From Micromonospora sonneratiae (GTDB lineage Bacteria > Actinomycetota > Actinomycetes > Mycobacteriales > Micromonosporaceae), in the NCBI RefSeq assembly GCF_042679305.1, contig NZ_JBHTMP010000029.1, positions 24,267 through 56,266 on the forward strand: 32,000 nucleotides of DNA, read 5' to 3'. The position numbers and the translations under genes are program-made. Numbering within the stretch: position 1 is the first letter of the stretch; every line of letters starts with the position of its first letter. The notes beneath the pieces were generated by a model, which saw only the letters and a program-made list of their open reading frames with translations, had not been told where the DNA came from and did not search any database. Of the stretch, positions 11,061-27,941 are shown in pieces.

Positions 11061-11062
11061 CC

Positions 11063-11113
11063 GGCGCCGGTGCCCGGGAACCGATCCCCCCATCCCACCC
11101 GGGCACCGGCGCC
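11063..11113 (+). terminator. Perfect 16-bp inverted repeat (stem-loop) immediately after the GNAT stop
   Basis: GGCGCCGGTGCCCGGG (11063-11078) and CCCGGGCACCGGCGCC (11098-11113) are exact reverse complements with a 19-nt loop. No T-tract follows, as is common for actinobacterial terminators. Confidence 0.45.
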
Positions 11114-11230
11114 CCTTCCCGATGTTGACCCAGCCGTTGTCGCCCAGCCGTAGCCATCACATCCGGCCAACAGCGACCCAGCAGGCCCAAACTCACAGTC
11201 AGCAACTACCAACCCGTGTAAGGAAACAGT

Positions 11231-11623
11231 GTGACGTCGACTCTGGACACCACCACGGTGCCCGACAGCGGTGCGATTCGGGTGATCCTCTCCGAGGTAG
11301 ACGTGGCGCGAATCTGCCACGAGGCGATCCGCGCACTGCAAACCGCGACCGGAGACAACGCCGTGCCCGGATGGGATGACGCCTCGGCCTCGCACCGCGA
11401 ATCGACGATTCGCACCGTCCGGGCGGTCCGCCAAGGAATGACCTGCGAGCAGATACACCAGGACTGGTGCAGGCGGATGCGCGCAGACAAGTGGACCTAC
11501 GGACCGGAGAAGAGCTACGAGTCGAGGACACACCCCTGCCTGGTCGGATACCAGGACCTGCCGAAACACGAGAAGGCCAAAGATGAACTGTTCCGGGTTA
11601 TCGTCCTCACGCTGGATCGATAG
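11231..11623 (+). CDS. RyR (ryanodine-receptor repeat) domain protein
   Basis: 130 aa with a GTG start after AAGGAAA. IHQDWCRRMRADKWTYGPEKSYESRTHPCLVGYQDLPKHEKAKDELFRVIV matches the RyR-domain signature W....GW.YG......K.HP.LV.Y..LP..EK.KD. Confidence 0.8.
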   Translation: MTSTLDTTTVPDSGAIRVILSEVDVARICHEAIRALQTATGDNAVPGWDDASASHRESTIRTVRAVRQGMTCEQIHQDWCRRMRADKWTYGPEKSYESRTHPCLVGYQDLPKHEKAKDELFRVIVLTLDR

Positions 11624-11977
11624 CCACAGGCGAGTCCTTGGCAGAGGTGCGACGCCCCGAAAAGCCTCCACCGAACCCGGAGTGGGCTAACAGTTGTACC
11701 CAACTGCCCGGGTGAACATGCGGGACGAGCCTACAAACCTCTGCGGCGGCAGCCGGAACTGGTGTGTTCACCTGACAGCGTCGCCTCCGCCGTTCGCCGT
11801 CCATGCAGCACGTCTGCCACATGTGGGCGACCCGGCAGCTACAAGCCGCTGAGGCCCACTCTGCACACAACCACCACGTCAGCCCCACCGCTTACCGGGG
11901 CCGCGCCTATCCCCGCGGTCCTGTCCCCAACCGCACCAGCCCATCGAAGACACTGACATGAAAGGCCGAAGACACAC

Positions 11978-14131
11978 ATGGACGTCCCCGATACGGCCGG
12001 CCCGCCGATCGTGGTGTGCCCCGACTGTCAGGGGCTCACCTTCGTAGTGAGGTCGTGCCACTGCCGCCACGGCGGTGACCAGTTCCTCATCGACGGGTCC
12101 CAGCCCTTCGGCGTCGACCGGGGCCCCTACCGTGACTGCGAGGTCTGCGACGGCGTCGGCAGCGTCAGCGAAGGTTGCCACCGCTGCGGCGGCAGCGGTG
12201 TATGCCGAGCGCAACTCGTCCTCACCGTAGCCAACATCGACTCGGGCCAGGTGGCCTCGGTCGACATCCTGCCCGGCATGCTCGCTCCTCGGCCGCTACC
12301 CAACGGCAGGTACGCCGCCGACCTGATGCCCGTGGTCCGTGGACTTGCCGGCAAAGTCGCCGCAGCCGAGGTCTTCGAGTCGATGATGCCGCAGACCCCC
12401 GTCACCGCGGACAGTGAACTGTTGGTCTTCATGCCACCGCAGTGGCACCCAGACCTACCCGAAACCGTTCGAGCGCTGCTCGGAGCCGTCGCGGTCGCCG
12501 ACGCCGCCCAGTACCGGCCCTGGCAGATCTACCTCGGACGCACCGGACCCGCATCACCAAACCTCAACCAACTGCTCACCGGTTTGTGCGCGGTAGCCGA
12601 CCAGGTCTGCCTAGACCTCGTCGTCGACCACCGGCGTGACACCTACGGAGATCCCGACAATCCGCTGCTGTGGTGGGGAATACGCTACGAGGCCCCAGAA
12701 TCAGCGGTGCCAGCCGACAGCCCGACCCACTGCAGCCTCCAGGAAGCGCTCACACATACCAACCCCGCTGAAGCCATCAGATCAGGCATCGGCATCGGTC
12801 GCAGACAGTCACCGGGATCCCGTCGCCATACCGCACCAGCGCACTGGGTCAACCCACCCCTGGCCGCCGCAGACCCGCCGCAGACCGTCGACTGGACCGA
12901 GGTTGCCCGACAGGTCACACAGGCCTGCGGAACCGGGCCCGGCGCGGTCGCCATCTGGCGTAACCGCCGCTGGCACTACAGCCCACTAGCCGAAACCGGC
13001 GTGACCGAAATCCTCAACCCGCAGGCCACCGGCCAGGTCACCGTACACACCGTGCCGATCCTGACACGAGCCCTGGAACCACCGCCGCCGACCTACTGGG
13101 GCCAGCCAATCCCGTCCCGCCGCTGTCCAGACTGCGCCAGCGGCACAGCGTGGAACCGATGCGGATGCGCCATCAACCTGCACGACGACCGCCCCGACCC
13201 AGACTGCGAGCTATGCAGCGGCACCGGCATACACGCACACCACTCCTGCATGACCTGCAGGGACATCACCCACATCCGCGCCGGAGTAGTTGTCACCCTC
13301 ACCGACCTGAACCAGCAGACCCTGCACATCAACTGGCGACCCGACGACAAGCCGACCACCCACCTGGTGGCGACCACCCCAGCAGGCACACCCGTTCTAC
13401 AACTCTCAGACGACTACCAGATCGCGAAGTGGACCCAACTGCTCGACACACCCAACACATCACTGATCGACCTGGCCACCGGCCTGGAACTCGACTCCAC
13501 GCTACGCGACGCACTGGTGATCACATCCGACCCGGCAGCCGACCCCGCCATCCAACACCTCCACCAAGCCAGTCGCGGCCGACCAGGAGCACGCCTGCTC
13601 GTACACACCAGCCAACCACCAAACCCCTCCACCGACCTACTCCAACTCCTCCGGCTCATCCTCGGCCTCGGCCTCACCGCCGAAATCACCGCAGAAAGCC
13701 ACCGGCACCGCGCCGGCGAGCCACTGTCCGTCCAAGGCGAACGCTGGCTCCTCAACGCCGTCCCACCCGGCACCCCCGTCAACGAGGTACAAACACCGAT
13801 CCACACCACGCTGCATCAAGCCACCAGCAACCTGAACAAGTACCTACCCACACTCCTTCACCAACTCGCGTCCGCCATGCCGCACCAGCCGCTGGCCGTC
13901 CCACAACAACCCACACCAGCAAACGTCGAAGTCGACAACCCAGAGACACTTATGCGCCGCCTCGCCGACCACTACCAAAACCACGCCGTCATGGCCCGCA
14001 TCGAGCACCACCGCTGCCGCATCTACGCCGGTGGCTTCGAGTACGCACAACTGGTCGCCACCGCACCCACCCTGCCCACAGCAGTCCGCGCGCTACTCGG
14101 CACCACCACCACAGGTGGCGAAAGCCCATAA
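11978..14131 (+). CDS. Large hypothetical protein with two DnaJ-CR-like zinc-finger clusters
   Basis: 717 aa with consistent high-GC3 codon usage. Cluster 1 (aa 14-76, nt 12017-12205): CPDCQG, CHC, CEVCDGVG, CHRCGGSG. Cluster 2 (aa 383-427, nt 13124-13258): CPDCASG, CGC, CELCSGTG, CMTC. No enzymatic motif recognised. Confidence 0.8.
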   Translation: MDVPDTAGPPIVVCPDCQGLTFVVRSCHCRHGGDQFLIDGSQPFGVDRGPYRDCEVCDGVGSVSEGCHRCGGSGVCRAQLVLTVANIDSGQVASVDILPGMLAPRPLPNGRYAADLMPVVRGLAGKVAAAEVFESMMPQTPVTADSELLVFMPPQWHPDLPETVRALLGAVAVADAAQYRPWQIYLGRTGPASPNLNQLLTGLCAVADQVCLDLVVDHRRDTYGDPDNPLLWWGIRYEAPESAVPADSPTHCSLQEALTHTNPAEAIRSGIGIGRRQSPGSRRHTAPAHWVNPPLAAADPPQTVDWTEVARQVTQACGTGPGAVAIWRNRRWHYSPLAETGVTEILNPQATGQVTVHTVPILTRALEPPPPTYWGQPIPSRRCPDCASGTAWNRCGCAINLHDDRPDPDCELCSGTGIHAHHSCMTCRDITHIRAGVVVTLTDLNQQTLHINWRPDDKPTTHLVATTPAGTPVLQLSDDYQIAKWTQLLDTPNTSLIDLATGLELDSTLRDALVITSDPAADPAIQHLHQASRGRPGARLLVHTSQPPNPSTDLLQLLRLILGLGLTAEITAESHRHRAGEPLSVQGERWLLNAVPPGTPVNEVQTPIHTTLHQATSNLNKYLPTLLHQLASAMPHQPLAVPQQPTPANVEVDNPETLMRRLADHYQNHAVMARIEHHRCRIYAGGFEYAQLVATAPTLPTAVRALLGTTTTGGESP

Positions 14132-14997: not shown

Positions 14998-15591
14998 GTG
15001 TTTGAGAAAGGAACAACAGCGGCAGAAATGACCATGCTTCCCGACATCAAAACTCCAAAAGATTTGGAAGAGCTGCAGCGACTCGCCAGGGGCGAGCGTG
15101 ACCGTACACCCGTGCCGATAGGAATCCGCACGATTTCAAATCCGCAACCGCCCAAAGGCAGCGCTACCGTCATTAAAAGCGTTGACCATCTACTCCTCCG
15201 CGCAATGCGGTCGGAGAACGGTCAGACACGAAGGGTCGCCGAGCGAATACAAAACCTCGCCACCGAACTGAACCGACGAGTTCAGGCCGAAGAGAATACG
15301 CGGCGGCAGCGATTGGAGGACGAAGTCGCCGAACTAGAAATGCAGCTAGCCATGGCCCGCGCCAAACTGCGTTCGCTGGACCGAGCCGCGACCACCTCGA
15401 TATCCGTCCCACTCCGTTCAGACGGCACGAAAAGCGCTGTCGACGCAGCCGCCGTACGGCTCTGGGCCGCCAACAACGGCTACGTAGTGAAACCCACCGG
15501 ACGTGTCCCGACAGTAGTCATCGACGCCTGGCGTGCAGCGAACATTCAAGTCGAAACCACGGAAGACGATCGAATGACGCGATCCCAGTAG
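14998..15591 (+). CDS. Lsr2-like nucleoid-associated protein (Lsr2-type C-terminal DNA-binding domain, divergent coiled-coil N-terminus)
   Basis: The C-terminus AAAVRLWAANNGYVVKPTGRVPTVVIDAWRAAN parallels the Lsr2 DNA-binding domain ([29 protein letters not shown]). The central region is heptad-like (RRQRLEDEVAELEMQLAMARAKLRSL). Start uncertain: GTG 14998 after GAGG, or ATG 15028 after AAAGGA. Confidence 0.7.
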   Translation: MFEKGTTAAEMTMLPDIKTPKDLEELQRLARGERDRTPVPIGIRTISNPQPPKGSATVIKSVDHLLLRAMRSENGQTRRVAERIQNLATELNRRVQAEENTRRQRLEDEVAELEMQLAMARAKLRSLDRAATTSISVPLRSDGTKSAVDAAAVRLWAANNGYVVKPTGRVPTVVIDAWRAANIQVETTEDDRMTRSQ

Positions 15592-15979: not shown

Positions 15980-16333
15980 CTACTGACTCCGGCTACCGTT
16001 GCTCGAGGTTGCCGGCTTTTGGTCGGTGCGGTAGGACTCGCTCCAGCGCTGCAGGTCCGCGAGGAAGGCCATGAGGAGCGGTAGCAGGTGCATGCCGGCT
16101 GGCGTGAGTTGATACAGCGCGCCGTCGGGTCCGCCCGGTCGGCAGATGAGTCCTTGGTCGTGTAGCCGGCGTAGGGCTTCGACCAGTGACTTCGAACTGG
16201 GTGTTGGTTGGATGGCTCGGAGTAGATCGGTAAAGCGCATTGGCTGCTGTTGCTGCAGCGCCGTCATGATCTCCAGGGTCCAGCGGCGCCCGCAGAGATT
16301 GATCGCATCGTAGTAGGTCTGGAAGATGTTCAC
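15980..16333 (-). CDS. HxlR-family winged-helix transcriptional regulator
   Basis: 117 aa. LCGRRWTLEIMTALQQQQPMRFTDLLRAI...SSKSLVEALRRLHDQGLICR...YQLTPAG is the HxlR signature. Confidence 0.85.
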   Translation of the reverse strand: MNIFQTYYDAINLCGRRWTLEIMTALQQQQPMRFTDLLRAIQPTPSSKSLVEALRRLHDQGLICRPGGPDGALYQLTPAGMHLLPLLMAFLADLQRWSESYRTDQKPATSSNGSRSQ

Positions 16334-16783: not shown

Positions 16784-16961
16784 GTGTGGCGACTCCTTAA
16801 TGGCCATTGCACAAAATTTTAGGTGTCTAGTGCTGGCGGGCGTAGTGTCGCAAACCCGACAGTGCGTGTCGTGTATGTCTCATTTATTCGCAAATTTAGT
16901 TCCCCTTTGGTGCTTACGGCTGGGTAGTTACCTCTTGGTACTCACGTTGCGGTAATCGCGG
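16784..16961. promoter_or_regulatory. AT-rich divergent control region between the winged-helix pair and the lipoprotein/tad operon
   Basis: Hand count of 16801-16920 gives 59/120 G+C (49%), against more than 70% in the flanking operon. Contains GCACAAAATTTTAG and CGCAAATTTAG boxes. Function is inferred from position only. Confidence 0.35.
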
Positions 16962-17681
16962 GTGTTGGGTGTAGAGGTGATTGCAGACCTTGAGATGTGG
17001 AACTTCCACGGGGGTGTCGTGGTGCTGTCGGCCGAGCGTGAGCAGACTGGTGTTGCACTCAGTGAAGTAACTACCAGTGAGCATCGCCGGAAAGCGCGCT
17101 TTCGCGGCTTCCAGTTCCTGAGCGGCTCGCCTTGGCCTCGTACCAGGCCGGTTCTTGTTGCTTTGACTCTTGCCCTTGCCCTGACCGGATGTAACAGCGG
17201 GGACGCGGGCAACCGCTCCACGCCGACTACTCCGACCTTATCGGCACCTCAAGGGGATTCCCGTTCCATAGCCGAAGCTGCAGCACTGGAGGCGTATCGC
17301 GGAATGTGGCAGGCGTACGCCAAGGCCGGGTTGACCGCGAACCCTGACGAGCCGGATCTCGCAAAGTACGCGAGCGAACGGGCGCTGTCGACGCTCCGAG
17401 AAGGGCTCGCGGGTACTAAACGCGACGGACACGTCATCAAGGGCGAGCTTGGCTCAGCTCCGCAGGTGGAGCGAGCTAGCCCAGCAGCCCAGCCGATGAC
17501 CGTAAGCATCATCGATTGCCTCAACACCGAGAAGTTTCTTACCTACACGACCTCCGGCGATCCGGTCGACGACGAGCCCGGTGGGCGTCGACTAACCAGA
17601 GCGACGGTCACGAACATCAGTACGGGCGAAGGCTGGAAAGTAACCGGCCTCGGCATACAGGCGGTAGGAACATGCAGCTAA
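16962..17681 (+). CDS. Putative lipoprotein (start uncertain)
   Basis: Lipobox LALALTGC, preceded by a basic/hydrophobic segment RTRPVLVALTLA. The mature part is soluble (EAYRGMWQAYAKAGL...). Several upstream in-frame starts are possible. The end overlaps the next gene by 10 nt. Confidence 0.6.
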   Translation: MLGVEVIADLEMWNFHGGVVVLSAEREQTGVALSEVTTSEHRRKARFRGFQFLSGSPWPRTRPVLVALTLALALTGCNSGDAGNRSTPTTPTLSAPQGDSRSIAEAAALEAYRGMWQAYAKAGLTANPDEPDLAKYASERALSTLREGLAGTKRDGHVIKGELGSAPQVERASPAAQPMTVSIIDCLNTEKFLTYTTSGDPVDDEPGGRRLTRATVTNISTGEGWKVTGLGIQAVGTCS

Positions 17682-18535
17682 AGCACTGGGCGAGCAAACT
17701 GCAAATACTGGCGGCGGCCAGTCTTTGCACCGCGGTTCTCCTCAGCGCACCAGCACACGCAGGCGATGGAGTCGGCGGGGTTGACTGCTCAGAGTTTCCC
17801 AGCGCGCAAGAGTGCGACGTAGTAGCCGGCACACCAGGTAACGGTGGGAGCACCGGTGATGGCAGTGCCGGGAACGGCGAAGGTTCGGGCAGTGGTGGGG
17901 GTAGTACGCCTTGCCGTTATGTGCGTTTGCCGCAGCAGGATCCGCCTCCGGCTGGTGCGGGTGCGGGGGGCTGGTATGTGCAGGTGTGCCGTGTGGACGG
18001 CAGTGTGTCGACGAGCCCGCCGTTGTGGCTGGCGGCGGGGCAGGTGGCTGATCCGCAGGCGTTGGCGCAGGTGGCTGTGTCGCGGCTGCGGCTTCCGGCG
18101 CCGGCGATCCGGCGGAATCCCGCTTCGGCTGCGGGGGTGATGGTCCAGGTGCCGGTGTGGCTGTGGGTGGACGGGTCGACGTGGGGGGCGCGTTCGGCGA
18201 CGGCGTCGGTGCCGGGCATGAGCGTGACCGCGACCGCGACGCCGGTCCGGGTGGTGTGGACCCCGGGCGATGGGACCGCTGATGTGGTGTGCCACGGGCC
18301 GGGTACCCCATGGCGTGCGGGTACCGATCCGCGAGCGGTGTCACCGTGCGGTCACACGTATCGGACCAGTTCTGCGGGCGTGCCGGGTAACAAGTTCACG
18401 CTCCGGGCGACGGTGACGTGGTCGGTGTCGTGGGCTGGTGGTGGGCGAAGCGGCACGGTGCCGTCGTTGATGACGTCGTCGTCGGTGGGGTTGCCGGTGG
18501 CGCAGTCGCAGTCGGTCGTGACGGGGCAACGATGA
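17672..18535 (+). CDS. Secreted protein of unknown function (signal peptide, Gly/Ser-rich linker, Cys pairs)
   Basis: ATG 17672 (M53 of track ORF 17516..18535). MQLKHWASKLQILAAASLCTAVLLSAPAHA is a signal peptide. High GC3. Confidence 0.7.
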   Translation: MQLKHWASKLQILAAASLCTAVLLSAPAHAGDGVGGVDCSEFPSAQECDVVAGTPGNGGSTGDGSAGNGEGSGSGGGSTPCRYVRLPQQDPPPAGAGAGGWYVQVCRVDGSVSTSPPLWLAAGQVADPQALAQVAVSRLRLPAPAIRRNPASAAGVMVQVPVWLWVDGSTWGARSATASVPGMSVTATATPVRVVWTPGDGTADVVCHGPGTPWRAGTDPRAVSPCGHTYRTSSAGVPGNKFTLRATVTWSVSWAGGGRSGTVPSLMTSSSVGLPVAQSQSVVTGQR

Positions 18536-19215
18536 GCGTCACGGTCGACCGTGCTCGGATCCCGGTTCCGGTGGCACAGCCGTCGAAGGATGCCGCGCGG
18601 CGGTCTGGTCAGCGCAGCGGTCGGCGGGTCGTGCTCGGGGCGTTGTTGGTGCTGCTGAGCGTGGTCGTGTTTTGGCAGGTGGATCTGCGGGCGAACGAGG
18701 GGCGGTCGTTCCTGGCTGCTGCGCGGTCGGTGGCCGCCGGTCAGGTGATTGCTGATGTCGATGTGCAGGTGGTGCGGGTGTCGAACGTGTCTGGGCTGGT
18801 GTTGCTGCCGGCTGACCAGCGTAGTCAGGTCGTGGGCCGTACTGCGGTGGTGCCGCTGGCGGTAGGCAGTTTGCTGACGGCGGCGCAGGTGGGTCCGGTG
18901 GCGTGGCCGCCGGCTGGTCAGGCGGTGATCGCGTTGCCGGTCAAACCTGGTCGTGCTCCGGCGGGGTTGGCGGCGGGAGCACGGGTTGTGGTTCTTGTGG
19001 TGCCTCCGGCGACGGTGGGGCAGGCGGCGGGCCCGGTGGGTAGTAGCGGGTCTGATGGGGTGCGGCGGGGTGTGGCCACGGTGGTGTCGGTCGAGGCCGG
19101 CGCGGATCAGGTGGGGAGCCTGTTGGTGACTCTGCTGCTGGCCGCCGACGCGGCGGAGGCGGTCGCTTCGGCTCCGGGGGATGTGTCGCTGGTGCAGCTC
19201 GGACCGGAAGGGTAG
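18532..19215 (+). CDS. CpaB/RcpC-like Flp pilus assembly protein (N-terminal TM + SAF-like domain)
   Basis: ATG 18532 overlaps the upstream TGA (ATGA). TM segment VVLGALLVLLSVVVFW followed by AARSVAAGQVIADVDVQVVRV...VVGRTAVVPLAVGSLLTAAQV, typical of the SAF/CpaB family. Confidence 0.7.
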   Translation: MSVTVDRARIPVPVAQPSKDAARRSGQRSGRRVVLGALLVLLSVVVFWQVDLRANEGRSFLAAARSVAAGQVIADVDVQVVRVSNVSGLVLLPADQRSQVVGRTAVVPLAVGSLLTAAQVGPVAWPPAGQAVIALPVKPGRAPAGLAAGARVVVLVVPPATVGQAAGPVGSSGSDGVRRGVATVVSVEAGADQVGSLLVTLLLAADAAEAVASAPGDVSLVQLGPEG

Positions 19216-19219
19216 TGCC

Positions 19220-19957
19220 GTGTTGGTCGTGTGCGCGTCGGTGTCCGGGGCTCCGGGGGTGTCAACGGCGGCGGTGGGGCTGGCAGCGGGATGGCCACAG
19301 GCCGGGGGTCTGCTGTTGGAGGCCGATCCGTCCGGGGGAGTGGCCGCTGCCCGGTTCGGCCTGGCACAGCAGCCGGGGTTGGCGTCGCTGGCAGCGGCGG
19401 CGCGCCATGGCGGCGTGGGCGGCGTCCTTTCTGCGCATGTGCAGCGGTTGCCGCTCGGTGTTGGTGTGGTGGTGGCACCGGGGTCGGCGGATGTGGCTGC
19501 CGGATCGGTCGGTGTGTTGGCCGGCTCCGCGGATGCGTTGCGGGATGTGGCGCCGGTGGTGGTCGCTGACGTGGGACGGCTCTACCCGGAAAGCCCGGCG
19601 AGGGCGTTGGTGGCTGCTGCGGACGCGGTGGTTCTGGTGACCACGCCTACGACCGAATATCTGGACCATCTCGATGCTCGCCTTGGGTGGCTGCGGAACC
19701 TGGTAGACAGGGGCTGGATCGGGTTGGCGGTCTCCGGCAGAGGGCTGTACCCGGCGGCGGAGATCGGGGCGCGGCTGGCTCTGCCGGTGTGGGCGCAGTT
19801 GCCCCGTGACCAGCGTGGAGCTGCCGTGTTGGGCGGGAGACTGGCTGGTCGGACGTGGCACCGGACTCCGCTGGCACGCGCCTTGCGTGATCTGGCCGGC
19901 ACCTTGCACTGGTTCGCGACGCGCCGTGACACCGCTCAACTTGGGGCGTTGCGGTGA
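19220..19957 (+). CDS. TadZ/CpaE-like ParA/MinD-fold protein with degenerate Walker A
   Basis: GTG 19220, 4 nt after the cpaB-like stop. VLVVCASVSGAPGVSTAAVGLA replaces the deviant Walker A KGGVGKTT and has no Lys. LLLEADPSGG and AVVLVTTPT are MinD-like strands. Confidence 0.65.
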   Translation: MLVVCASVSGAPGVSTAAVGLAAGWPQAGGLLLEADPSGGVAAARFGLAQQPGLASLAAAARHGGVGGVLSAHVQRLPLGVGVVVAPGSADVAAGSVGVLAGSADALRDVAPVVVADVGRLYPESPARALVAAADAVVLVTTPTTEYLDHLDARLGWLRNLVDRGWIGLAVSGRGLYPAAEIGARLALPVWAQLPRDQRGAAVLGGRLAGRTWHRTPLARALRDLAGTLHWFATRRDTAQLGALR

Positions 19958-21261
19958 CCGCCCCGACCGGGGTGGGTGGGGTCGCGGCTGTGCCGGAGGT
20001 CGTCGCCCGGCTGCGGACACGGGTCAGTGACCGGCTGGCAGTTCAGGGTGCGGGCCTGCCGCAGCCGGAACGGGACGCGCTCATCGCCCGATTCATTGCC
20101 GAAGAGCTCGTCCTGCACGCGCAGACGGACATCGCCGCCGGGCGGACACCACTGTCCCCGCAGATGGAGGCGGCGGTCGCCCGTGCGCTGCGGGACAGCT
20201 TCACCGGCCTCGGTGGGTTGCAGATGCTGATTGACGATCCCGAGATCGAGGATGTCTTCGTCAACGGCTGTGACAACGTGTGGATCCGTACGACCGGCGG
20301 CCGGGTACAACGGGTGGCGCCGGTGGCTGCCTCGGACGAGGATCTGGTCGAGCTGGTGCGGGTCGCCGCCGCAAGGAGCGGGCAGGAGGAGCGGCGTTTC
20401 GACCGGGGCTCGCCGGGGCTGTCACTTCGGCTGCCTGGTGGGCAGCGACTCTTCGCGGTCATGGCGGTCAGCAAACGGCCCAGTTTGTCGATCCGTCGCA
20501 ATGTGCTGCGGAAGGTCACCCTCGATGACCTGGTGCACCGGGGCGAGATGACCCTCGGCTTGCGGGAGCTTATCGCTGCGATGGTCCGCGCCAGAAAGAA
20601 CCTGGTCATCAGCGGTGGTACCGGTGCGGGCAAGACAACCCTGTTGCGGGCCGCTGCCGGGGCGATGAGCCCGCTAGAGCGCATCGTCACAGTTGAGGAC
20701 GCCTACGAACTGGGGTTGGACGAGGATACCGACCAGCACCCCAACTGCACGGCGCTGCAGCAGCGCGAGCCCAACCTCGAAGGTGTCGGCGGAATAGACA
20801 TGGCCACGATGGTGCGGTGGGGGCTGCGAATGCGTCCTGACCGGGTCATCGTCGGCGAGTCCCGGGGCGCCGAGGCTGTTCCAATGCTGATGGCGATGAG
20901 CCAGGGCAACGACGGCAGCATGTGCACCCTGCACGCCAGCTCATCGAAACAGGCACTGACCCGGCTGGCGACCTACGTCATGCAAGCCCCGGAGCGGTAT
21001 CCATTCGACGCGGCGAACATGCTCATCGGCCAGGCCGTCGACTTCGTCATCCATTTGTCGACCGCGACCGACGGCACCCGGGTGGTGTCCTCGATCAGGC
21101 AGGTCCTCGAAACGGACGGCACGCAGGTACCCAGCAACGAGATCTACCGGCCGGCTCGAGACGGCCGCGCAGTGCCAGCAGCGCCGATGCGCGCGGACAC
21201 CCTCGAAGACCTGGTGGCCGCCGGCCTGGACCCGGACCTCCTCAGTAAGGACCGGTGGTAG
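19954..21261 (+). CDS. tadA: TadA/CpaF type IV pilus (Tad) secretion ATPase
   Basis: 435 aa. Walker A ISGGTGAGKTTLLRA, Asp box RIVTVEDAYEL, Walker B RPDRVIVGESRG, His box GSMCTLHASS. GTGA overlap with the upstream gene. Confidence 0.95.
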   Translation: MTAPTGVGGVAAVPEVVARLRTRVSDRLAVQGAGLPQPERDALIARFIAEELVLHAQTDIAAGRTPLSPQMEAAVARALRDSFTGLGGLQMLIDDPEIEDVFVNGCDNVWIRTTGGRVQRVAPVAASDEDLVELVRVAAARSGQEERRFDRGSPGLSLRLPGGQRLFAVMAVSKRPSLSIRRNVLRKVTLDDLVHRGEMTLGLRELIAAMVRARKNLVISGGTGAGKTTLLRAAAGAMSPLERIVTVEDAYELGLDEDTDQHPNCTALQQREPNLEGVGGIDMATMVRWGLRMRPDRVIVGESRGAEAVPMLMAMSQGNDGSMCTLHASSSKQALTRLATYVMQAPERYPFDAANMLIGQAVDFVIHLSTATDGTRVVSSIRQVLETDGTQVPSNEIYRPARDGRAVPAAPMRADTLEDLVAAGLDPDLLSKDRW

Positions 21262-22112
21262 CCATGCGGGCAATCCTGCTCGGTCTCGCCTGCGCCGCCG
21301 GCCTGATCCTGATCCTCGACGGGCTGCGTCGCCGTCCTCCCGGCCCCGCACCGTCCGGCCGAACCCGCTGGGCCTGGACGTCGGCCGACCGAACCCGTCT
21401 CTTGGCCGCCGTCACGGGCGGGCTGGCCGCCGCTGTGCTGACCCGCTGGCCGGTAGCGGCCCTGCTCACCGCCGCCGGAGTCTGGACCCTGCCCCGTGTA
21501 CTCGGGCCCGATCGGGACCACCGGCGGTCCCTCGCGCGGATCGAGGCTATCGCCACGTGGGCCGAACTGCTGCGCGACACCCTGTCCTCGGCGGCTGGGC
21601 TGGAGCAGGCGATCACCGTGACCGCACCGGTCACCCCGTTGCCGATCCGCGCCCAAGTGCAGCGTTTGGCCGACGCCGTCCGTACCGGGGCGCGGCTGTC
21701 CGACGCCCTGCGCGCCTTTGCCGACGAGTTGGCCGATCCGACCGCGGACCTGGTAGTGCGCGCTTTGCAGCAGGCCGCCGGCTACCACGGCGGTCAGCTC
21801 ACCGAGAGTCTGACGAGCCTGGCCGCCACCGCCCGGGAACAGGCCCAGATCCGGATGCGGGTCGCCACGACCCGAGCCACGACCCGGACAGCGGCGCGGG
21901 TCATCACCGGCACCTGCGTGGTCATGGTCGCCGGCCTGATCCTGCTCAACCGAGGCTTTCTCGCCCCATACAGCACAGTCACCGGGCAGATGGTCCTGCT
22001 GCTGGTCGGCGGCATATTCGCCGGTGGCTTCTGGTGGCTGGCCCGTGCCTCGCGGATCCCCCAACCACCCCGCATCCTCAGCGGCGCCAGCCCTGACAGG
22101 ACGTCGACATGA
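21255..22112 (+). CDS. tadB: TadB-like type II secretion system F-family membrane protein
   Basis: 285 aa. N-terminal TM, a cytoplasmic helical T2SSF domain (LSDALRAFADELADPTADLVVRALQQAAGYHGGQL) and C-terminal TMs. Start is GTG 21255 or ATG 21264. Confidence 0.8.
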   Translation: MVAMRAILLGLACAAGLILILDGLRRRPPGPAPSGRTRWAWTSADRTRLLAAVTGGLAAAVLTRWPVAALLTAAGVWTLPRVLGPDRDHRRSLARIEAIATWAELLRDTLSSAAGLEQAITVTAPVTPLPIRAQVQRLADAVRTGARLSDALRAFADELADPTADLVVRALQQAAGYHGGQLTESLTSLAATAREQAQIRMRVATTRATTRTAARVITGTCVVMVAGLILLNRGFLAPYSTVTGQMVLLLVGGIFAGGFWWLARASRIPQPPRILSGASPDRTST

Positions 22113-22981
22113 GCGGTAGCGTCCTGCTCGCGGGAGCCGCAGCCGGTCTCGGGCTACTGCTCATCGTAACCGGCATGGTCCCCACGCGGCCGTCCCTCGC
22201 GCAGGCACTCGACGCCCTACGCCGCCCGCCCGCCCCGGCCACCGCCCCGCTGCCGTGGCGTACCCAGGTCCTGTCCATCCCGTGGAAGGCGCTCGGGATG
22301 CCGTTTGCCCGCACCCGGGCGGACCTCGCCGTGCTGGAACGGCCCGCCGCCACGCACCTGGCCGACCAAACCCTCGCCGTCCTGGCCGGACTCCTGCTCC
22401 CGCCGGTCGTGATTGCGCTGCTCGCGGCAGGTGGTACGGCCTTCGGCAGCGGCATCCCACTGTGGGCGTCGCTGGCCGGTGGTGTCGGTGGATGGTGGCT
22501 GGCCGAGACCACCGTGCACGCCGAAGCCGAGCGGCGCCGCGACGAGCTCCGCCACGCCTTGTCGGCCGTGCTCGACCTGGTCGTCATCTCCCTGGCCGGC
22601 GGCGCCGGACTGGAACAGGCCCTCGACGATGCCTGCTCGGACACCAGCGGCTGGGCCGCCGCCTGCCTGAATCGCGCGGTGGCGACCTCCCGGCTGCTGC
22701 GGGTACCGCCCTGGCAGTCCCTCGGCCAACTCGGCGAGGAGACCGGAGTCATCGAGCTGCAGGAGTTGGCCGCGACCATGAGCCTCGCCGGAGCCGAGGG
22801 CGCCCGGATCCGCACTTCACTGAGCATCCGCGCCGCCACCATGCGCGCCCACCAGGCCAACGCCCTGGAAGCCAAGGCCAACAGCGCGACGGAACGCATG
22901 AGCATGCCGGTGATGCTCCTGGCGGTCGGCTACATGCTGTTCCTCCTCTATCCGGCGGTCGCCGCCATCGACACGTTCTAA
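22109..22981 (+). CDS. tadC: TadC-like type II secretion system F-family membrane protein
   Basis: 290 aa. ATGA overlap with tadB, and the same TM / helical domain / TM layout. Confidence 0.8.
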   Translation: MSGSVLLAGAAAGLGLLLIVTGMVPTRPSLAQALDALRRPPAPATAPLPWRTQVLSIPWKALGMPFARTRADLAVLERPAATHLADQTLAVLAGLLLPPVVIALLAAGGTAFGSGIPLWASLAGGVGGWWLAETTVHAEAERRRDELRHALSAVLDLVVISLAGGAGLEQALDDACSDTSGWAAACLNRAVATSRLLRVPPWQSLGQLGEETGVIELQELAATMSLAGAEGARIRTSLSIRAATMRAHQANALEAKANSATERMSMPVMLLAVGYMLFLLYPAVAAIDTF

Positions 22982-23015
22982 ACCTGACCGAATCCATACA
23001 GAAGGAGTACCCGTC

Positions 23016-23216
23016 GTGCCCAGAGCACTCGCCCTACTGACCCTGGTCCGCCTCACCCTGACCGACCGGATCCGCCGCCTACGTGACAGCGGCGACCGCG
23101 GCTCCGAAACCACCGAGAAAGTGCTGTGGATCGCGTTCCTGGTCATACTCGTCGTCGGCGTGTACGCGATCTTCCAATCCAAGATCATCACGAAGATCAC
23201 CGGCATCAACCTGTAA
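23016..23216 (+). CDS. Flp-type prepilin-like small protein
   Basis: 66 aa. GTG start 8 nt after GAAGGAG. Basic leader, then DRG|SETTEKVLWIAFLVILVVGVYAIF (Gly, Glu at +5, hydrophobic helix). Confidence 0.6.
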   Translation: MPRALALLTLVRLTLTDRIRRLRDSGDRGSETTEKVLWIAFLVILVVGVYAIFQSKIITKITGINL

Positions 23217-23219
23217 ACG

Positions 23220-23666
23220 ATGACCGACGTACGCCCACGCCGACGTCGACACCGCCTCGCCGGTGACCGCGGCTCGGTTACCACCGAAATGGTGCTCTAC
23301 ACCCCGCTGCTCATGCTGCTCGTACTGCTCGGTGTGCAGTTCGCGACCTGGGGCGTGGCCCAACTCGCCGTCCAGCACGCCGCCAACCACGCGCTGCAGA
23401 CGACCCGGGTCGAAGGCGGCACCGTCGCAGCCGGACAGGCAGACGCCAACGCCATCCTCAGCCAAATCGCCGGCAGCCTCGTCAGCAACCGGCAGATCAA
23501 CGTGACCCGCACGGCCGACACCGCCACCGTCCACATCAGGGCCACCGCACCGCGGGTCGTACCGTTTCTGTCTCTCCGCGTGTCAACGACGGTGACCGCA
23601 CCGGTCGAACGGTTCCGCCCCGACACACAGGGACTCGCCGCACCAGGGAAGGCCGCCGATGAGTAG
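23220..23666 (+). CDS. TadE-like pseudopilin
   Basis: 148 aa. DRG|SVTTEMVLYTPLLMLLVLLGVQF followed by a beta-rich domain, typical of the TadE family. Confidence 0.75.
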   Translation: MTDVRPRRRRHRLAGDRGSVTTEMVLYTPLLMLLVLLGVQFATWGVAQLAVQHAANHALQTTRVEGGTVAAGQADANAILSQIAGSLVSNRQINVTRTADTATVHIRATAPRVVPFLSLRVSTTVTAPVERFRPDTQGLAAPGKAADE

Positions 23667-24129
23667 GGCCACGCCATCCAACCCTAAACGCCGGCTCGCC
23701 CGCCATTTGGCCAGGCTGCGAGACGACGAGGGCTCGGTGAGCACCGAGATCGCGCTGACCTACGTGCCGCTGATGGTCCTCGCCGCGCTGGCCATCATCG
23801 CCTGCCTGCGACTGGCCTCGGCCAACAGCGACGTGCACGCCGCCGCAGCAGCCGCCGCCCGCCAGGCATCGCTCGCCCGCACCCCAGCCGGAGCCGTCGC
23901 CGGCGGGAAGGAGACCGCCGCCGCGACCCTGCAGAGCCGGAACATGACCTGCCAACCCCACACCACCACCGTGAACACCGGCGGCATGGCCCCGGGCGGT
24001 CAGGTCTCCGTCACCGTGGTCTGCACCGTGCACCTGGAAGACCTGTTCGGGCTGGGCCTACCCGGTGCCGTGACGTTATCGGGCACCGCATCGCAGCCCA
24101 TTGACCGCTACATCGGGTCGATGCCATGA
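23659..24129 (+). CDS. TadE-like pseudopilin (second copy)
   Basis: 156 aa. DEG|SVSTEIALTYVPLMVLAALAIIACL. 8-nt overlap with the previous gene. Confidence 0.7.
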   Translation: MSRATPSNPKRRLARHLARLRDDEGSVSTEIALTYVPLMVLAALAIIACLRLASANSDVHAAAAAAARQASLARTPAGAVAGGKETAAATLQSRNMTCQPHTTTVNTGGMAPGGQVSVTVVCTVHLEDLFGLGLPGAVTLSGTASQPIDRYIGSMP

Positions 24130-24572
24130 GGCGACTACGCACCCGCCTACAGCAGATTCAGCGGGACGACCGTGGCCAGATCACCCCGTGGACGACCGTC
24201 GGCGTCCTCATCGTTCTGATCCTCGCCGGCCTCGTCCTCGACCTCGGCCTCGGCATGTCCGACAAGGTCCGGCTGCTCGACCTCGCCCAGGCCGCCGCCC
24301 GCGCAGGCGCCCGCGAAATCGACCTCGACATATACCGGACCACCGGCGCCATCCAACTCCAGCCCGCCCAGGCCGCCGCAGCAGCAAAGGCCTTCGCCCA
24401 GCAAGCCGGTGTCGAAGGGCAGGTCACCGCGTCCGCCTCCACCACCACCGTCACCGTCACCATCACCAGCACCCGACAAACCCAACTACTCACGCTCGTC
24501 GGCATCACCAGCCTGCCGGTGTCCGCGACCGCGACCGCCACCCCCCTGACCGGCGTCACTGCACCCATTTGA
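24126..24572 (+). CDS. TadG/TadE-related pilus assembly protein
   Basis: 148 aa. ATGA overlap. DDRGQITPWTTVGVLIVLILAGLVLDLGL then LAQAAARAGAREID, as in TadG-like (Rv3654c-type) proteins. Confidence 0.6.
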   Translation: MRRLRTRLQQIQRDDRGQITPWTTVGVLIVLILAGLVLDLGLGMSDKVRLLDLAQAAARAGAREIDLDIYRTTGAIQLQPAQAAAAAKAFAQQAGVEGQVTASASTTTVTVTITSTRQTQLLTLVGITSLPVSATATATPLTGVTAPI

Positions 24573-24600
24573 CCCCACCTATCTCCGACCGGGAGTCCCA

Positions 24601-27600
24601 GTGATCGCATTCCTCGCCGCCACGGCCCGACGGCTGGCCGGACTCACGCTCCTGGTCATACTCACCGCCGGAGTGCCGTACGCGCTCGTCCACTACATCG
24701 GCTGGCCGCTGCCCCGCCATGTCCCCACCTGGCAGGACATCGGCACCGCCCTGACGTCACCACTGACCGACATCATGCTCGGCAACATTGTGGTGTGCCT
24801 GCTCTGGGTGGCCTGGGCGGCATTCATCTGGTCACTGATCGTGGAGATCTTCGAGGCGGTGGCGGGCATCCGCCTACCGCAGCCCAAAGCCATCGCACCA
24901 GCACGAGGACTCGCCGCACTCCTGGTAGCCGCCATCACCGGCGGTGTCCTCGCCACCGCAGCCCAGGCCGCACCGACCCTGACCCGGGCCGCCGAAGCGA
25001 CCGGTCACAGCACAAGCACCACTGTCGCTGCCGCGACCGCAGCGACCACCGTTTCAACCACCACTACCGCCCGGTCGGCGGCCACGGGCATTCACGAAGC
25101 ACCAGGCCAGCAGACAACAGCACTGACGCCGAAGCGGACGGGCACGGGAGATCCGGTGCCAGTCCGGCTGGTGGCTGGCGATCTGACCCTCGTCGCATCC
25201 GGGCAGACCTACACCTGCCAGGTGAAGCGCGGAGACACCCTGTCGGAAATCGCCAAGGAATGGCTCGGCGACCCCAACCGCTGGCCAGAAATCTTCGCCC
25301 TGAACCGAGGCACCCACTTCCACGATGTCGGCGGAACACTCACCAACCCGAACCTGATCTACCCAGGCTGGACCCTGGAACTGCCCGACGACGCCACACC
25401 ACCCGCCGGCACACCACCACGGCCCGCCGCCCCCGACACAATGGGGCCCGAAAAGCCAGCGCCGAACACCCCCGCGCCAGCACCCACCCCGCCACCATCA
25501 GAGAAACCCAAAAGTCCGTCGCCCAACTCCAGCACGCCGTCGCCCCACCATGTCGACGACGGCGTGGCGGAGCCCGCCCCGTCGCCGACCGCCTCTGCCG
25601 GGCCGGCGGCCAGCCCGGACACACCTGCCGAAGAACAGCAGACTCCCACGCCGCGACCCGAACCGTCGCCCGGTGTCTCACTCGGAACCGGCAGCTGGCT
25701 CGACCTCGGGCTCGTCGCCGCGATCCTCGCAGCCGTCGCTCTCGTCTGGGCGCACCGCCGTCGCCGCTACACCCCCAGGCAACCCACACCGCAGCTACGC
25801 CTAGATGATCCGACCGTCGAGCCGATGCCGGACGTGGTCACCCGGATCCGTCGCGGCCTGCCCAAGCCAGTGAGGACACCGACCCCAGAGACGATTCCCG
25901 ACACCCCGCTCGACAAACTCATTGCGGATCCCGACACGAACGAGACAGACACAGCCGACGACGAACCCGACAACGTCCTGACAGACGTTCCGCAACCGGT
26001 TACGCCCGCGCTCACCAGCCCGGTGATCGAGGTGTGGCCACCCGCCGGACTGGGGCTGACCGGCCCCGGCGCCGAAGCCGCTGCCCGGGGCTTCCTGGTG
26101 TCCGCCCTCGCCGCCGGTGGGCTGGACGAACCCAACGGCCGCAGCTACGTCGTCATCCCCTCCGGCACCCTCGCGACGCTGTTGGGGGCCGCCGCAGTCA
26201 CCGTGCCGGACACCCCACGCCTGACCGTCACCGGCGGGCTCACCGACGCCCTGACACTGCTGGAGGAACAGACCCTGCACCGCACCCGGGTGTGCTTCGA
26301 CTACGAGGTCGACACCATCGCCGGCCTGCGGAACCTGGACCCCATGGCCGAGCCCCTACCGCCGATGGTGCTCATCGCCGATACCACCGCAGCCCATGAG
26401 CGCGCCCGCATCGCCGCGCTGCTCACCCAAGGGCAACGGCTCGACATCCACGGCGTCCTGCTCGGCTCCTGGCCCGACGGCGACACCGTCGTCGTCGCCC
26501 AGGACGGATCCACCAGCCCCGCCGAAGGCGACGCGAATCGGCACGGCCGCCATCCCGCCGACGTCCGACGCCTCACCGTCATCGACCCGGCCGAGGCCAC
26601 CGACCTACTTCGGGTCCTCGCCGAGTCCCACACCGGCGAGCCCCAGCCACCGGCTCCCGCGGAGCGCGCACCACTGCCCACAGCCGACCCCCAGCCCGAC
26701 GCTGAGACAGCCGCAAGCAGCAGCGAAACGCCCCACAGCGACGAAGAGACGGTCCCGCCGTCCGATCCGACCGAGCCGAACCGCGAACTGTCCACCGCCG
26801 CTACCGCCGTGGACGAACCCGCCACCGAATCGGCGACAGTCGAACCGCCAACCCAGGACGACCAAGTCGAAGCCGGCGAGGACGACGCCGCGCGACAAGA
26901 CGACGGCGAAGACGCCGGGACCGGGCGGGTCGACGTCCAGGTGCTCGGGGACGCCCGCGTCGTAGACATCGACACGACACAGCCATTGCGCGGCAAGGCG
27001 CTCGAACTGCTGGTCTACCTGACAGCTCGGGGAGGTGTCGCGAGCCAAGAGGCGATCCTGGAAGACCTGCTACCCGAAGCCACGACCAGCAAGGCACCCC
27101 ACCGGCTGCACACCTACGTCTACAACCTGCGCCGAGTCCTCAAGCGCACCGGCGGCTCCGCCACCTACCTGTCCCACCCCGACCGGCGCTACATCCTGCA
27201 CCGGGAGGCAGTCGACGTGGACCTGTGGCGGATGAGCGACGCCCTTGACGAGGCGAACCGCGCCACGAGCCCCACCGACCGTATCGCCGCCCTGCGCCGC
27301 GCCGTCAACACCTACCGAGGACCCCTCGCCAACGGCAAGGGCTACGAGTGGATCGAACCGTACCGAGAGGCCGTGCAACGGCAGGCCGTCGACGCCACCC
27401 TCGCCCTGGCCGAAGCGCTCGACGACCAACCCGGCGAGGCGCTCGCCGCCCTCACCACCGCGATCAGCCACAGCCCCTACGCCGAGACGCTGTACCAGGC
27501 AGCCATGCGTGCCCACGCGAAGCTCGACGACCCTGCGGCGATCCGCGACCTGCAACGCCAGCTCGCCCGTTCCCTCGACGACATCGACACCGAGGTCAGC

Positions 27601-27687
27601 GACGAGACGACCGCTCTGGCACGCGCGCTGGTGAACCGGCTGCAACGAGGCCGGCGCGTAGGCGGGGATGGCAAGAACTCCTTATGA
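24601..27687 (+). CDS. Membrane-anchored LysM domain protein fused to an OmpR-type wHTH + BTAD (SARP-like) regulator module
   Basis: 1028 aa. Three N-terminal TM helices, then LysM (aa 204-262, nt 25210-25386: YTCQVKRGDTLSEIAKEWLGDPNRWPEIFALN...IYPGWTLELP). A Pro/Ser/Thr-rich linker leads to TM4 (WLDLGLVAAILAAVALVWA). The C-terminus from aa 775 (nt 26923) reads VDVQVLGDARVV...KALELLVYLTARGG...LHTYVYNLRRVL...VDLWRM...YRGPL...YEWIEPYRE...YQAAMRAHAKLDDPAAI. Confidence 0.85.
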   Translation: MIAFLAATARRLAGLTLLVILTAGVPYALVHYIGWPLPRHVPTWQDIGTALTSPLTDIMLGNIVVCLLWVAWAAFIWSLIVEIFEAVAGIRLPQPKAIAPARGLAALLVAAITGGVLATAAQAAPTLTRAAEATGHSTSTTVAAATAATTVSTTTTARSAATGIHEAPGQQTTALTPKRTGTGDPVPVRLVAGDLTLVASGQTYTCQVKRGDTLSEIAKEWLGDPNRWPEIFALNRGTHFHDVGGTLTNPNLIYPGWTLELPDDATPPAGTPPRPAAPDTMGPEKPAPNTPAPAPTPPPSEKPKSPSPNSSTPSPHHVDDGVAEPAPSPTASAGPAASPDTPAEEQQTPTPRPEPSPGVSLGTGSWLDLGLVAAILAAVALVWAHRRRRYTPRQPTPQLRLDDPTVEPMPDVVTRIRRGLPKPVRTPTPETIPDTPLDKLIADPDTNETDTADDEPDNVLTDVPQPVTPALTSPVIEVWPPAGLGLTGPGAEAAARGFLVSALAAGGLDEPNGRSYVVIPSGTLATLLGAAAVTVPDTPRLTVTGGLTDALTLLEEQTLHRTRVCFDYEVDTIAGLRNLDPMAEPLPPMVLIADTTAAHERARIAALLTQGQRLDIHGVLLGSWPDGDTVVVAQDGSTSPAEGDANRHGRHPADVRRLTVIDPAEATDLLRVLAESHTGEPQPPAPAERAPLPTADPQPDAETAASSSETPHSDEETVPPSDPTEPNRELSTAATAVDEPATESATVEPPTQDDQVEAGEDDAARQDDGEDAGTGRVDVQVLGDARVVDIDTTQPLRGKALELLVYLTARGGVASQEAILEDLLPEATTSKAPHRLHTYVYNLRRVLKRTGGSATYLSHPDRRYILHREAVDVDLWRMSDALDEANRATSPTDRIAALRRAVNTYRGPLANGKGYEWIEPYREAVQRQAVDATLALAEALDDQPGEALAALTTAISHSPYAETLYQAAMRAHAKLDDPAAIRDLQRQLARSLDDIDTEVSDETTALARALVNRLQRGRRVGGDGKNSL

Positions 27688-27941
27688 TCGACACATACCC
27701 GGGGTCGAGCCGAGCCAACGGAAACCATCTGGCACCGGACAACTCGCCTAGAAACCTTTCAACGGAGGCTCGCCCCATCCGAGCCGTACAGCCGGTCGAA
27801 GAGCAGACCGACACGCAGCTGGAGCATGCTGTCCGCCGAGCCACGCAGATGCGGATGATCTTCGACGTCGTCGTGCTCTCCGTGACACTCACAGGGCAGG
27901 TCACCGGCGAGACACAGAAGCTCGATATGCCTCACGTGTGA
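27684..27941 (+). CDS. Hypothetical 85-aa ORF coupled to the LysM-BTAD gene
   Basis: ATG 27684 overlaps the TGA at 27685-27687. The C-terminal part (RMIFDVVVLSVTLTGQVTG) is hydrophobic. The 3' end overlaps the convergent FAH gene by 10 nt. Support is weak. Confidence 0.3.
   Translation: MIDTYPGSSRANGNHLAPDNSPRNLSTEARPIRAVQPVEEQTDTQLEHAVRRATQMRMIFDVVVLSVTLTGQVTGETQKLDMPHV

Follow-up and report, generated by a model that had tools for sequence, protein, structure and literature searches.

SARPs are familiar as soluble proteins that activate antibiotic clusters, and in all characterised small, medium and large SARPs, to our knowledge, the protein is soluble and the SARP module N-terminal. The DNA sites of OmpR-type winged helices are direct repeats in tandem, spaced every ~10-11 bp; this arrangement, with one helical turn per repeat, is classical for OmpR, PhoB and SARP winged helices. 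In classical SARP boxes the repeat is a heptamer that recurs every 11 bp, and the box overlaps the −35 region. ToxR, TcpP and CadC attach an OmpR-class winged helix to the membrane and join it to an extracytoplasmic sensor in one polypeptide. FimV and HubP each join a LysM domain to a transmembrane helix and to TPR-like repeats in the cytoplasm. Domains of the FtsK fold usually assemble into rings close to the membrane, and EccC and EssC contain degenerate ATPase domains of this fold. Here we describe a gene in a 32,000-nucleotide stretch of Micromonospora sonneratiae DNA (contig NZ_JBHTMP010000029.1, positions 24,267 to 56,266; below, the window) that follows a tad pilus operon and encodes a membrane protein with a LysM domain predicted to lie outside the membrane, a central domain modelled with the FtsK fold and a C-terminal SARP module. 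We call its product the LysM-SARP protein and judge it to be a variant of SARP and ToxR-like logic that has been annotated automatically and is uncharacterised in the literature; a literature search returned no paper characterising it and no genetic data on a requirement for it in pilus formation.

The C-terminal ~250 amino acids consist of an OmpR-type winged helix followed directly by a bacterial transcriptional activator domain (BTAD), as in AfsR, DnrI, ActII-ORF4 and EmbR. The BTAD scored 45 bits against Pfam PF03704 over residues 873-1010 (cut-off 22.1), and a profile of 24 family sequences aligned to Mycobacterium tuberculosis EmbR over ~230 residues spanning winged helix and BTAD (E=5e-9). 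In the full-length AlphaFold model both domains had predicted local distance difference test (pLDDT) scores >90, and their best Protein Data Bank (PDB) matches were AfsR (8hvr, 8k60) and EmbR (2fez), with E values of 5e-8 to ~1e-7 and a target-normalised TM-score of 0.69; Foldseek also returned many TPR matches for the BTAD. The recognition helix (residues 832-851, KAPHRLHTYVYNLRRVLKRT) contains three invariant residues, R835, T838 and R844, and reads hRlhTyVsaLRkvL in the family profile and IHSYVSNLRKLL in EmbR. The module can be aligned across all orders compared and with EmbR, and the recognition-helix signature is kept throughout. On the evidence of sequence and model, the protein thus has the OmpR-type winged helix and the directly C-terminal BTAD that mark a SARP, and the Pfam score, the EmbR profile and the fold matches bear out what an earlier note, made from the sequence alone, had proposed. 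It differs from known SARPs in that the module is not N-terminal on a soluble protein but lies at residues 776-1020 of 1028, behind four transmembrane helices. Its partner domains are a LysM domain and an FtsK-fold pseudo-ATPase domain rather than NB-ARC/TPR or FHA domains, and its gene sits in a pilus operon instead of an antibiotic cluster.

Transmembrane helices were placed by hydropathy and the AlphaFold model at residues ~12-33, 59-86, 98-120 and 363-386. A positive-inside analysis of 24 homologues gave 2.0 lysines plus arginines in the 9-residue N terminus, 3.5 in the 12-residue loop 2 and a mean of 6.0 in the 15 residues after the fourth helix, all three being segments almost without acidic residues, whereas loop 1 and the LysM/stalk region were acidic or neutral. 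This charge distribution indicates an N-in topology with the LysM domain outside and the C terminus inside. It supports the predicted arrangement in which the LysM domain is extracytoplasmic and the SARP module cytoplasmic, and hydropathy, model and charge analysis agree with the order of three helices, external LysM domain and stalk, fourth helix and cytoplasmic C terminus that had been read from the sequence before. W69, W72 and P100 of the N-terminal membrane module are invariant in the family. The LysM part matched NCBIfam PRK11198 (E=6e-8), the 24-sequence family profile matched LysM domains of known structure, among them those of Kbp, TsaP and, at E=6e-9, a LysM protein of a phage tail, and the full-length model showed the βααβ (E-H-H-E) fold with pLDDT ~90. 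Fold and family signature, as judged from sequence and model, are therefore those of a LysM domain; its location outside the membrane comes from the topology, and peptidoglycan binding is predicted. With the stalk and the acidic linker (Table 1), every domain that the earlier note had named was recovered.

Between the fourth helix and the acidic linker the same note had described a cytoplasmic region of about 380 amino acids of unknown fold. The region is real and resolves into a disordered linker of ~85 amino acids (residues ~387-470) and a domain of ~215 amino acids, the most conserved part of the family. A dedicated AlphaFold model of this central domain, built from a 74-sequence alignment, had a pLDDT of 87.5 and a predicted TM-score of 0.85. 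Foldseek matched it to EssC ATPases 2-3 (4lya, E=1.6e-6), the FtsK motor (2ius, E=3e-5), EccC (4nh0, 4n1a) and the conjugation coupling protein TcpA (6o1w), with query-normalised TM-scores of 0.53-0.58 for EssC, FtsK and 4n1a and ~0.4 for 4nh0 and TcpA. A profile search of the PDB with the central domain returned nothing at E <= 10 and a single-sequence phmmer search with the C terminus gave no match, so the identity of the domain rests on the fold search. The modelled fold is that of a P-loop NTPase of the FtsK type. The loop GLTGPGAE appears to occupy the Walker A position, and a Walker-B-like strand, MVLIAD-T, lies at residues 589-595; the catalytic patterns GxxGxGK[ST] and hhhhDE are absent from both. 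The glycines of the Walker loop are invariant, and the lysine is missing in 27 of the 28 aligned central domains. Because the catalytic Walker residues are missing family-wide, we do not expect the domain to drive translocation with ATP. EccC and EssC have degenerate domains of the same fold, and by analogy we infer that the central domain is a pseudo-ATPase for oligomerisation or regulation. The fold is also that of SpoIIIE and Streptomyces TraB, and with FtsK and TraB the protein shares an overall layout of transmembrane segment, long linker, P-loop domain and C-terminal winged helix. It departs from the FtsK/HerA superfamily in its degenerate Walker motifs, in the lack of sequence-level similarity and in having a single such domain, not three.

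The reading frame is uninterrupted over its whole length, and an identical gene call is present in NCBI record GCA_054780955.1 (contig BAAGVI010000008.1). Direct reading of the sequence bore out the 28-nt gap between the stop codon of the TadG-like gene (24570-24572) and the LysM-SARP start, and the GGGAG ribosome-binding site within it, both of which had been reported earlier. The upstream operon comprises two genes of unknown type, a SAF/RcpC-like gene, a further unknown gene (245 amino acids), a T2SSE ATPase gene, two T2SSF genes, a Flp-like open reading frame (ORF) of 66 codons (23016-23216), two TadE genes and the TadG-like gene. The LysM-SARP protein itself had no Tad-family match (TadZ, A, B, C, D, E, F or G; RcpA, B or C) in Pfam or NCBIfam.

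Homologues of the protein are numerous. At E <= 1e-5 there were 462, from Micromonospora, Salinispora, Plantactinospora, Actinoplanes, Dactylosporangium, Virgisporangium and other genera, and nearly all of the 120 listed were ~900-1170 amino acids long; they are automatically named "BTAD domain-containing putative transcriptional regulator" or "LysM peptidoglycan-binding domain-containing protein". An exhaustive profile search gave 2245 clusters (50% identity) at E <= 1e-30. The locus survey covered the 80 best genomic loci, all from Micromonosporaceae, and in 32 of them (e.g., Salinispora arenicola) a full tad operon in the same order as in the window lay immediately upstream. Streptomyces has its own large family of ~1100-amino-acid LysM proteins, the C terminus of which is homologous to the winged helix and BTAD (hhalign 99.9%, E=3e-36, 226 columns). 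All three Streptomyces loci inspected, one on a plasmid and two chromosomal, were tad operons ending with the LysM-SARP gene. Judged by sequence, what is demonstrably shared across orders is the LysM domain, the LysM-to-SARP layout and the SARP module. The middle of the Streptomyces proteins had looked to us like a degenerate FtsK motif, a reading that hhalign did not support (probability 0.3%) and that we reject.

A direct tblastn search of plasmids with the window protein yielded only LysM matches. A Streptomyces homologue was used as a stepping-stone query for the PLSDB plasmid search and matched 229 plasmids (Streptomyces, 155; Rhodococcus, 25; Curtobacterium, 8; Micrococcus, 6; Microbacterium, 5; and others). 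On Rhodococcus erythropolis pREL1, Curtobacterium flaccumfaciens pCFF113 and a Micrococcus luteus plasmid, the LysM-SARP gene lies 3' of TadE/TadG-like genes; on the two Micrococcales plasmids it stands between the minor-pilin genes and a prepilin peptidase gene, and on pREL1 there is a 4-nt overlap at its start. The tad locus of a Cutibacterium acnes plasmid includes PAGK_2369, which is listed with the domains "LysM, BTAD" and named "TadB" (PMC3666418, Table 2); the label is not supported by the domains listed in that same paper. These data establish that the architecture and its linkage to tad genes are real and widespread, and that the linkage is recurrent and syntenic in unrelated genomes. 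A survey for linkage of LysM-BTAD fusions to tad loci, which the earlier note had proposed, is thus positive in at least four actinobacterial orders, in addition to C. acnes from the literature.

On M. luteus plasmid pSGAir0127 the homologue is split into a 903-amino-acid LysM membrane protein (locus L089, 8314-11025) and a 256-amino-acid winged helix-BTAD protein (11022-11792); the halves overlap by 4 nt, the prepilin peptidase gene is next, and the split may be natural or a frameshift. These separate overlapping ORFs are what could be cited for an artefact, in which a LysM membrane gene and a small SARP gene had been joined by a sequencing or assembly error, as the earlier note had considered. 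The fused frame is conserved at full length in hundreds of homologues, those listed being from independent assemblies and many genera, and the 2245 clusters of the exhaustive search also speak against an artefact; the frame is open throughout in the window, where the assembly makes the same call. We therefore reject the artefact, the likelihood of which is negligible, and treat the gene as single.

The gene had been taken as part of a tad operon, and the linkage holds; specificity for tad does not, since about half of the closest relatives lie in a second type of cluster. In 37 loci without tad genes, the paralogue accompanies an HSP70-like ATPase gene, a gene that we call Y637 and often a gene that we call Z490. 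Y637 (~640-700 amino acids) is a LysM-less paralogue with the same transmembrane module, RRRR signal, GVGLVGPGALDAARG loop, winged helix and BTAD. Z490 has an N-terminal region with multiple transmembrane helices, an acidic linker and a C-terminal helix-turn-helix (HTH)-like motif, and in many relatives a Z490 gene of ~430-490 amino acids follows the LysM-SARP gene. In a search for a named system that would fit the HSP70-type cluster, neither NCBIfam nor PADLOC matched the LysM-SARP protein, Y637 or Z490. When the cytoplasmic halves were clustered by distance, tad-type and HSP70-type copies interleaved, and the window protein's own cluster held copies of both types at 74-85% identity. The interleaving of sequences from two contexts suggests exchange or conversion between paralogues.

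Several genomes carry more than one copy. Salinispora pacifica CNR114 has two complete tad loci (L004, L015), each with its own LysM-SARP gene, and of the four copies in Micromonospora sp. DT4 (L035, L043, L065, L072), three are HSP70-type and one is tad-type. The four-gene cluster recurs in Micromonosporaceae (e.g., L003:5842-14541 and L084), in the order divergent HSP70-like ATPase, Y637, LysM-SARP paralogue and Z490, and is often close to transposon, insertion sequence or integrase genes. In Micromonospora zamorensis, a Tn7-like element (TnsA-like protein, Mu-type transposase and TniB) lies between Y637 and the LysM-SARP paralogue (L084:4822-9594).

Directly upstream of the non-tad paralogues is a conserved element that consists of cTGAcCTGcgg, three copies of nTGTGAGGnn, cTGTcAGcc, 29 variable nucleotides and C.TA(G/C)(C/G)GTC. 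It was located outside the window at L003:9877-9935, L030:11577-11630 and 30 other loci, where the promoter-like order is CTGACCTGCGG, then repeats, spacer and hexamer. A gap-free alignment of 32 loci shows four TGTnAG direct repeats phased at 10 bp, each with an invariant TGT.AG core. The array occurs once per locus, always on the strand of the gene and ~75-130 nt before the start codon, and was present in 35 of the 37 HSP70-type loci and 9 of 15 unclassified loci. It is still attached to the paralogue in M. zamorensis despite the upstream Tn7-like insertion. The hexamer fits the actinobacterial −10 consensus TANNNT. If it is the −10 element, the four repeats would fall near −49, −59, −69 and −79; no −35 element is conserved. 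As an RNA element the array had no Rfam match and showed no conserved structure or covariation signal. We take it as a candidate OmpR/SARP-style operator for this SARP family. Recognition-helix and wing variants, including that of the window, are identical between tad-linked and array-linked proteins, from which we predict that the window protein recognises such sites too, at other places in its genome. Recognition helix and repeat sequence are both almost invariant, which leaves little room for covariation between them.

The region in front of the tad operon is of another kind. Alignment of intergenic regions revealed conserved blocks that are specific to tad-type loci: GGCGTAGTGTCGCAAACCCGACAG at 16839-16862, with a TGTCG…CGACA inverted repeat, and GGTAGTTACC…GGTACTCACGTTGCGGTAATCG at 16924-16958, within which GGTACTCACGTTGCGGTAATCG itself covers 16937-16958. 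TGCGGTAA was found in all 16 orthologous intergenic regions compared. The blocks adjoin a divergent gene for an HxlR-type regulator (15980-16333, minus strand) and may be its operator. No consistent 11- or 22-nt direct repeat of the SARP-box kind was detected in the window or in 15 orthologous intergenic regions, and the tad promoter region gave no sign of autoregulation of the operon by the LysM-SARP protein. A reading in which the protein regulates the tad operon is not supported by these data: the window has no TGTGAGG array and the tad promoter holds a different motif beside the HxlR-type gene.

We consider it an even call that the protein is a membrane-tethered, wall-binding activator of SARP type whose heads bind phased TGTnAG repeats, DNA binding itself being a prediction from sequence and structure models. 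On this reading, the LysM domain would fix the protein to peptidoglycan, or report the state of the wall, beside the pilus machine. As the degenerate EccC and EssC domains suggest, the pseudo-ATPase domain would serve as a platform that oligomerises or receives signals, and several SARP heads would thereby be gathered on flexible linkers. The heads would bind the 10-bp-phased TGTnAG direct repeats head to tail and activate promoters that have no −35 element. The window gene probably has no promoter of its own and would be co-transcribed with the pilus genes, so that protein and pili would be produced together; the DNA sites predicted for it would lie elsewhere in the genome, for example at an HSP70-type paralogue cluster. 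The predicted logic, an outside signal controlling DNA binding at the membrane, is that of ToxR, TcpP and CadC. The likeness to ToxR pointed out earlier holds as a functional resemblance: in the ToxR type an N-terminal winged helix is followed by a single transmembrane helix and a periplasmic sensor, whereas here the order is reversed and there are four helices. The pseudo-ATPase domain and BTAD are additional, and no sequence relationship is detectable beyond the winged-helix class.

Several observations weigh against this reading. The TGTGAGG array is absent, even with loose scoring, from the 32-kb window and from all 31 tad-type loci (±10 kb), and the tad promoter has another motif with short palindromic elements beside the divergent HxlR-type gene. 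The array has a 10-bp period and would span about −46 to −83, upstream of the −35 position that the classical SARP heptamers, with their 11-bp period, overlap. Another protein may also be the one that binds the array: Y637, which has no LysM domain, Z490 through its HTH, or some unrelated factor. Two of the three Pfam checks suggested by the earlier note fell short: the BTAD was well over its cut-off, but Trans_reg_C (18.7 bits; cut-off, 26.2) was under and LysM (18.2 bits; cut-off, 20.9) just under, both domains being supported by the other evidence given above. Finally, the gene has a fixed position among structural genes across orders, which is typical of machine components. The proposal of a membrane-bound SARP that links surface to transcription thus stands for its architecture and gains indirect support for DNA binding from the paralogue arrays, but no target site was found in the window.

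That fixed position is what would be expected if the protein were instead a wall-anchoring scaffold of the monoderm Tad machine. Its LysM domain would hold the apparatus in the thick peptidoglycan, an FtsK-like ring and the TPR-like BTAD would dock cytoplasmic partners (e.g., the hexamer of TadA/CpaF or the TadB/C platform), and the winged helix would serve protein contacts or be vestigial. The place after TadE/TadG-like genes is invariant in Micromonosporales, Kitasatosporales, Mycobacteriales and Micrococcales and in C. acnes, and the gene starts are tightly spaced or overlapping, as in the window and on pREL1. No operator was found in tad loci, the BTAD is TPR-like, and the usual membrane-proximal rings of FtsK-fold domains would suit a scaffold. 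The proposed analogues are FimV, HubP and TsaP of diderm type IV pili, which likewise have an extracytoplasmic LysM domain in a pilus-associated protein, and the LysM profile indeed matches the pilus protein TsaP. Apart from LysM, however, no homology to them was found; they are without a winged helix or FtsK-like domain and serve secretin-containing machines, whereas monoderm actinobacteria are without such machines. Further points against a scaffold are the close relatives outside pilus loci, which make up about half and interleave with tad-linked copies, the existence of a LysM-less paralogue, a DNA-recognition helix that is among the most conserved segments and the operator-like arrays that accompany paralogues. 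In addition, chromosomal M. luteus tad clusters have been described without a LysM-SARP gene (PMC4322843). We consider a structural role possible but rather unlikely. Since there are non-pilus copies and a LysM-less paralogue type, a plug-in regulator is an easier explanation than an obligate pilus part, and the separate 256-amino-acid SARP-module ORF of the M. luteus plasmid was also counted for a transcription factor.

The parallel with FtsK, SpoIIIE and Streptomyces TraB in the succession of transmembrane segment, linker, FtsK-like domain and winged helix raises another option, in which the protein is a DNA-docking component, embedded in the membrane and anchored to the wall, that tethers plasmid or incoming DNA at the Tad machine for conjugation or uptake. 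In the fold search the central domain came closest to translocases of DNA or substrates and to a coupling protein for conjugation (FtsK, EssC/EccC and TcpA). The winged helix is C-terminal to it, and the coupled downstream Z490 carries an HTH-like motif at its C terminus and is likewise a membrane protein. The tad subtype with a LysM-SARP gene is common on actinobacterial plasmids, as the PLSDB records show; conjugation genes adjoin the tad locus of the C. acnes plasmid (PMC5696575), and tad genes are required for M. luteus transformation (PMC4322843). However, the whole family has lost the lysine of Walker A and the acidic pair of Walker B, which leaves no motor, and its winged helix, followed by a BTAD, belongs to the OmpR/SARP type instead of the FtsK-gamma or TraB type. 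There are no relaxase or conjugation genes in the window, and the central domain is not detectably common to the Streptomyces tad-linked family. We regard such a role as improbable. Slightly less probable again is an extended form, in which a ring-forming hub, anchored to peptidoglycan, would dock DNA and, with Z490, convert this Tad subtype of actinobacterial plasmids or islands into an organelle that transfers DNA by conjugation or uptake.

If the protein is a membrane-tethered activator, it represents a new wiring of the SARP family, with surface-to-promoter signalling in a single polypeptide, and the predicted TGTnAG operator makes this model directly testable. The LysM-SARP gene is an unstudied conserved member of Tad operons on actinobacterial plasmids and islands, the carriers of which include Streptomyces, Rhodococcus, plant-pathogenic Curtobacterium and C. 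acnes plasmids linked to disease isolates. It bears on how monoderm Tad machines cross and sense a thick wall.

Table 1. Features of the LysM-SARP gene and its surroundings in the window (residue numbers refer to the LysM-SARP protein)
Feature	Residues	Coordinates	Strand	Basis
Conserved tad-promoter blocks GGCGTAGTGTCGCAAACCCGACAG and GGTACTCACGTTGCGGTAATCG		16839..16958	+	Alignment of intergenic regions
Upstream tad operon		16962..24572	+	Pfam, gene calls; gene order identical in Salinispora
GGGAG ribosome-binding site		24591..24595	+	5 nt 5' of GTG, inside 28-nt gap; read from sequence
LysM / FtsK-like pseudo-ATPase (putative) / SARP membrane protein gene	1-1028	24601..27687	+	GTG start, 1028 amino acids; ORF list
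N-terminal membrane module	1-120	24601..24960	+	Predicted helices TM1 12-33, TM2 59-86, TM3 98-120
LysM domain (predicted extracytoplasmic)	201-263	25201..25389	+	Pfam, NCBIfam, profile matches, AlphaFold
Pro/Ser/Thr/Ala-rich disordered stalk	264-362	25390..25686	+	28% proline; pLDDT <50
TM4, then RRRR stop-transfer signal	363-386 (TM4)	25687..25770	+	Hydropathy, AlphaFold
FtsK/EssC/EccC-fold P-loop domain (modelled), ~215 amino acids	~471-688	26011..26664	+	AlphaFold, Foldseek, conservation
Degenerate Walker-A-like loop G483-LGLTGPGAE-492	483-492	26047..26076	+	Lys to Ala, Ser/Thr to Glu; sequence and β1-loop-α1 position in model
Acidic disordered linker	689-775	26665..26925	+	~29% Asp+Glu; pLDDT <50
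OmpR/SARP-type winged helix	776-870	26926..27210	+	Fold match to AfsR/EmbR, EmbR profile alignment
BTAD (TPR-like)	~871-1020	27211..27660	+	Pfam PF03704, pLDDT >90, Foldseek
85-codon N-terminal remnant of Z490		27684..27941	+	Called as 85-amino-acid gene in assembly

Downstream, the ATG of the Z490 remnant overlaps the TGA stop codon of the LysM-SARP gene (ATGA). The remnant is 60% identical over 80 amino acids to the full-length gene of the closest relative (E=2e-26). DNA synteny with this relative stops at 27928, where a convergent FAA-hydrolase gene ends, which indicates that a deletion or rearrangement truncated Z490 in the window. The description of the LysM-SARP gene as the last large gene of the tad operon is therefore correct for the window, but only because the conserved next gene has been cut to 85 codons.

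Upstream of the tad region, a 717-codon ORF without a Pfam match (11978-14131, plus strand) is a putative gene and precedes a gene with an Lsr2-type DNA-binding domain (14998-15591, plus strand), which lies just upstream of the tad genes. In the GC profile (14-17 kb and 5-8 kb), values were 0.59-0.63 at the Lsr2 region and 0.68-0.72 in the tad genes. The Lsr2 gene and the GC dip may mark a horizontally acquired island under xenogeneic silencing. A Salinispora locus (L001) is also flanked by an Lsr2 gene.

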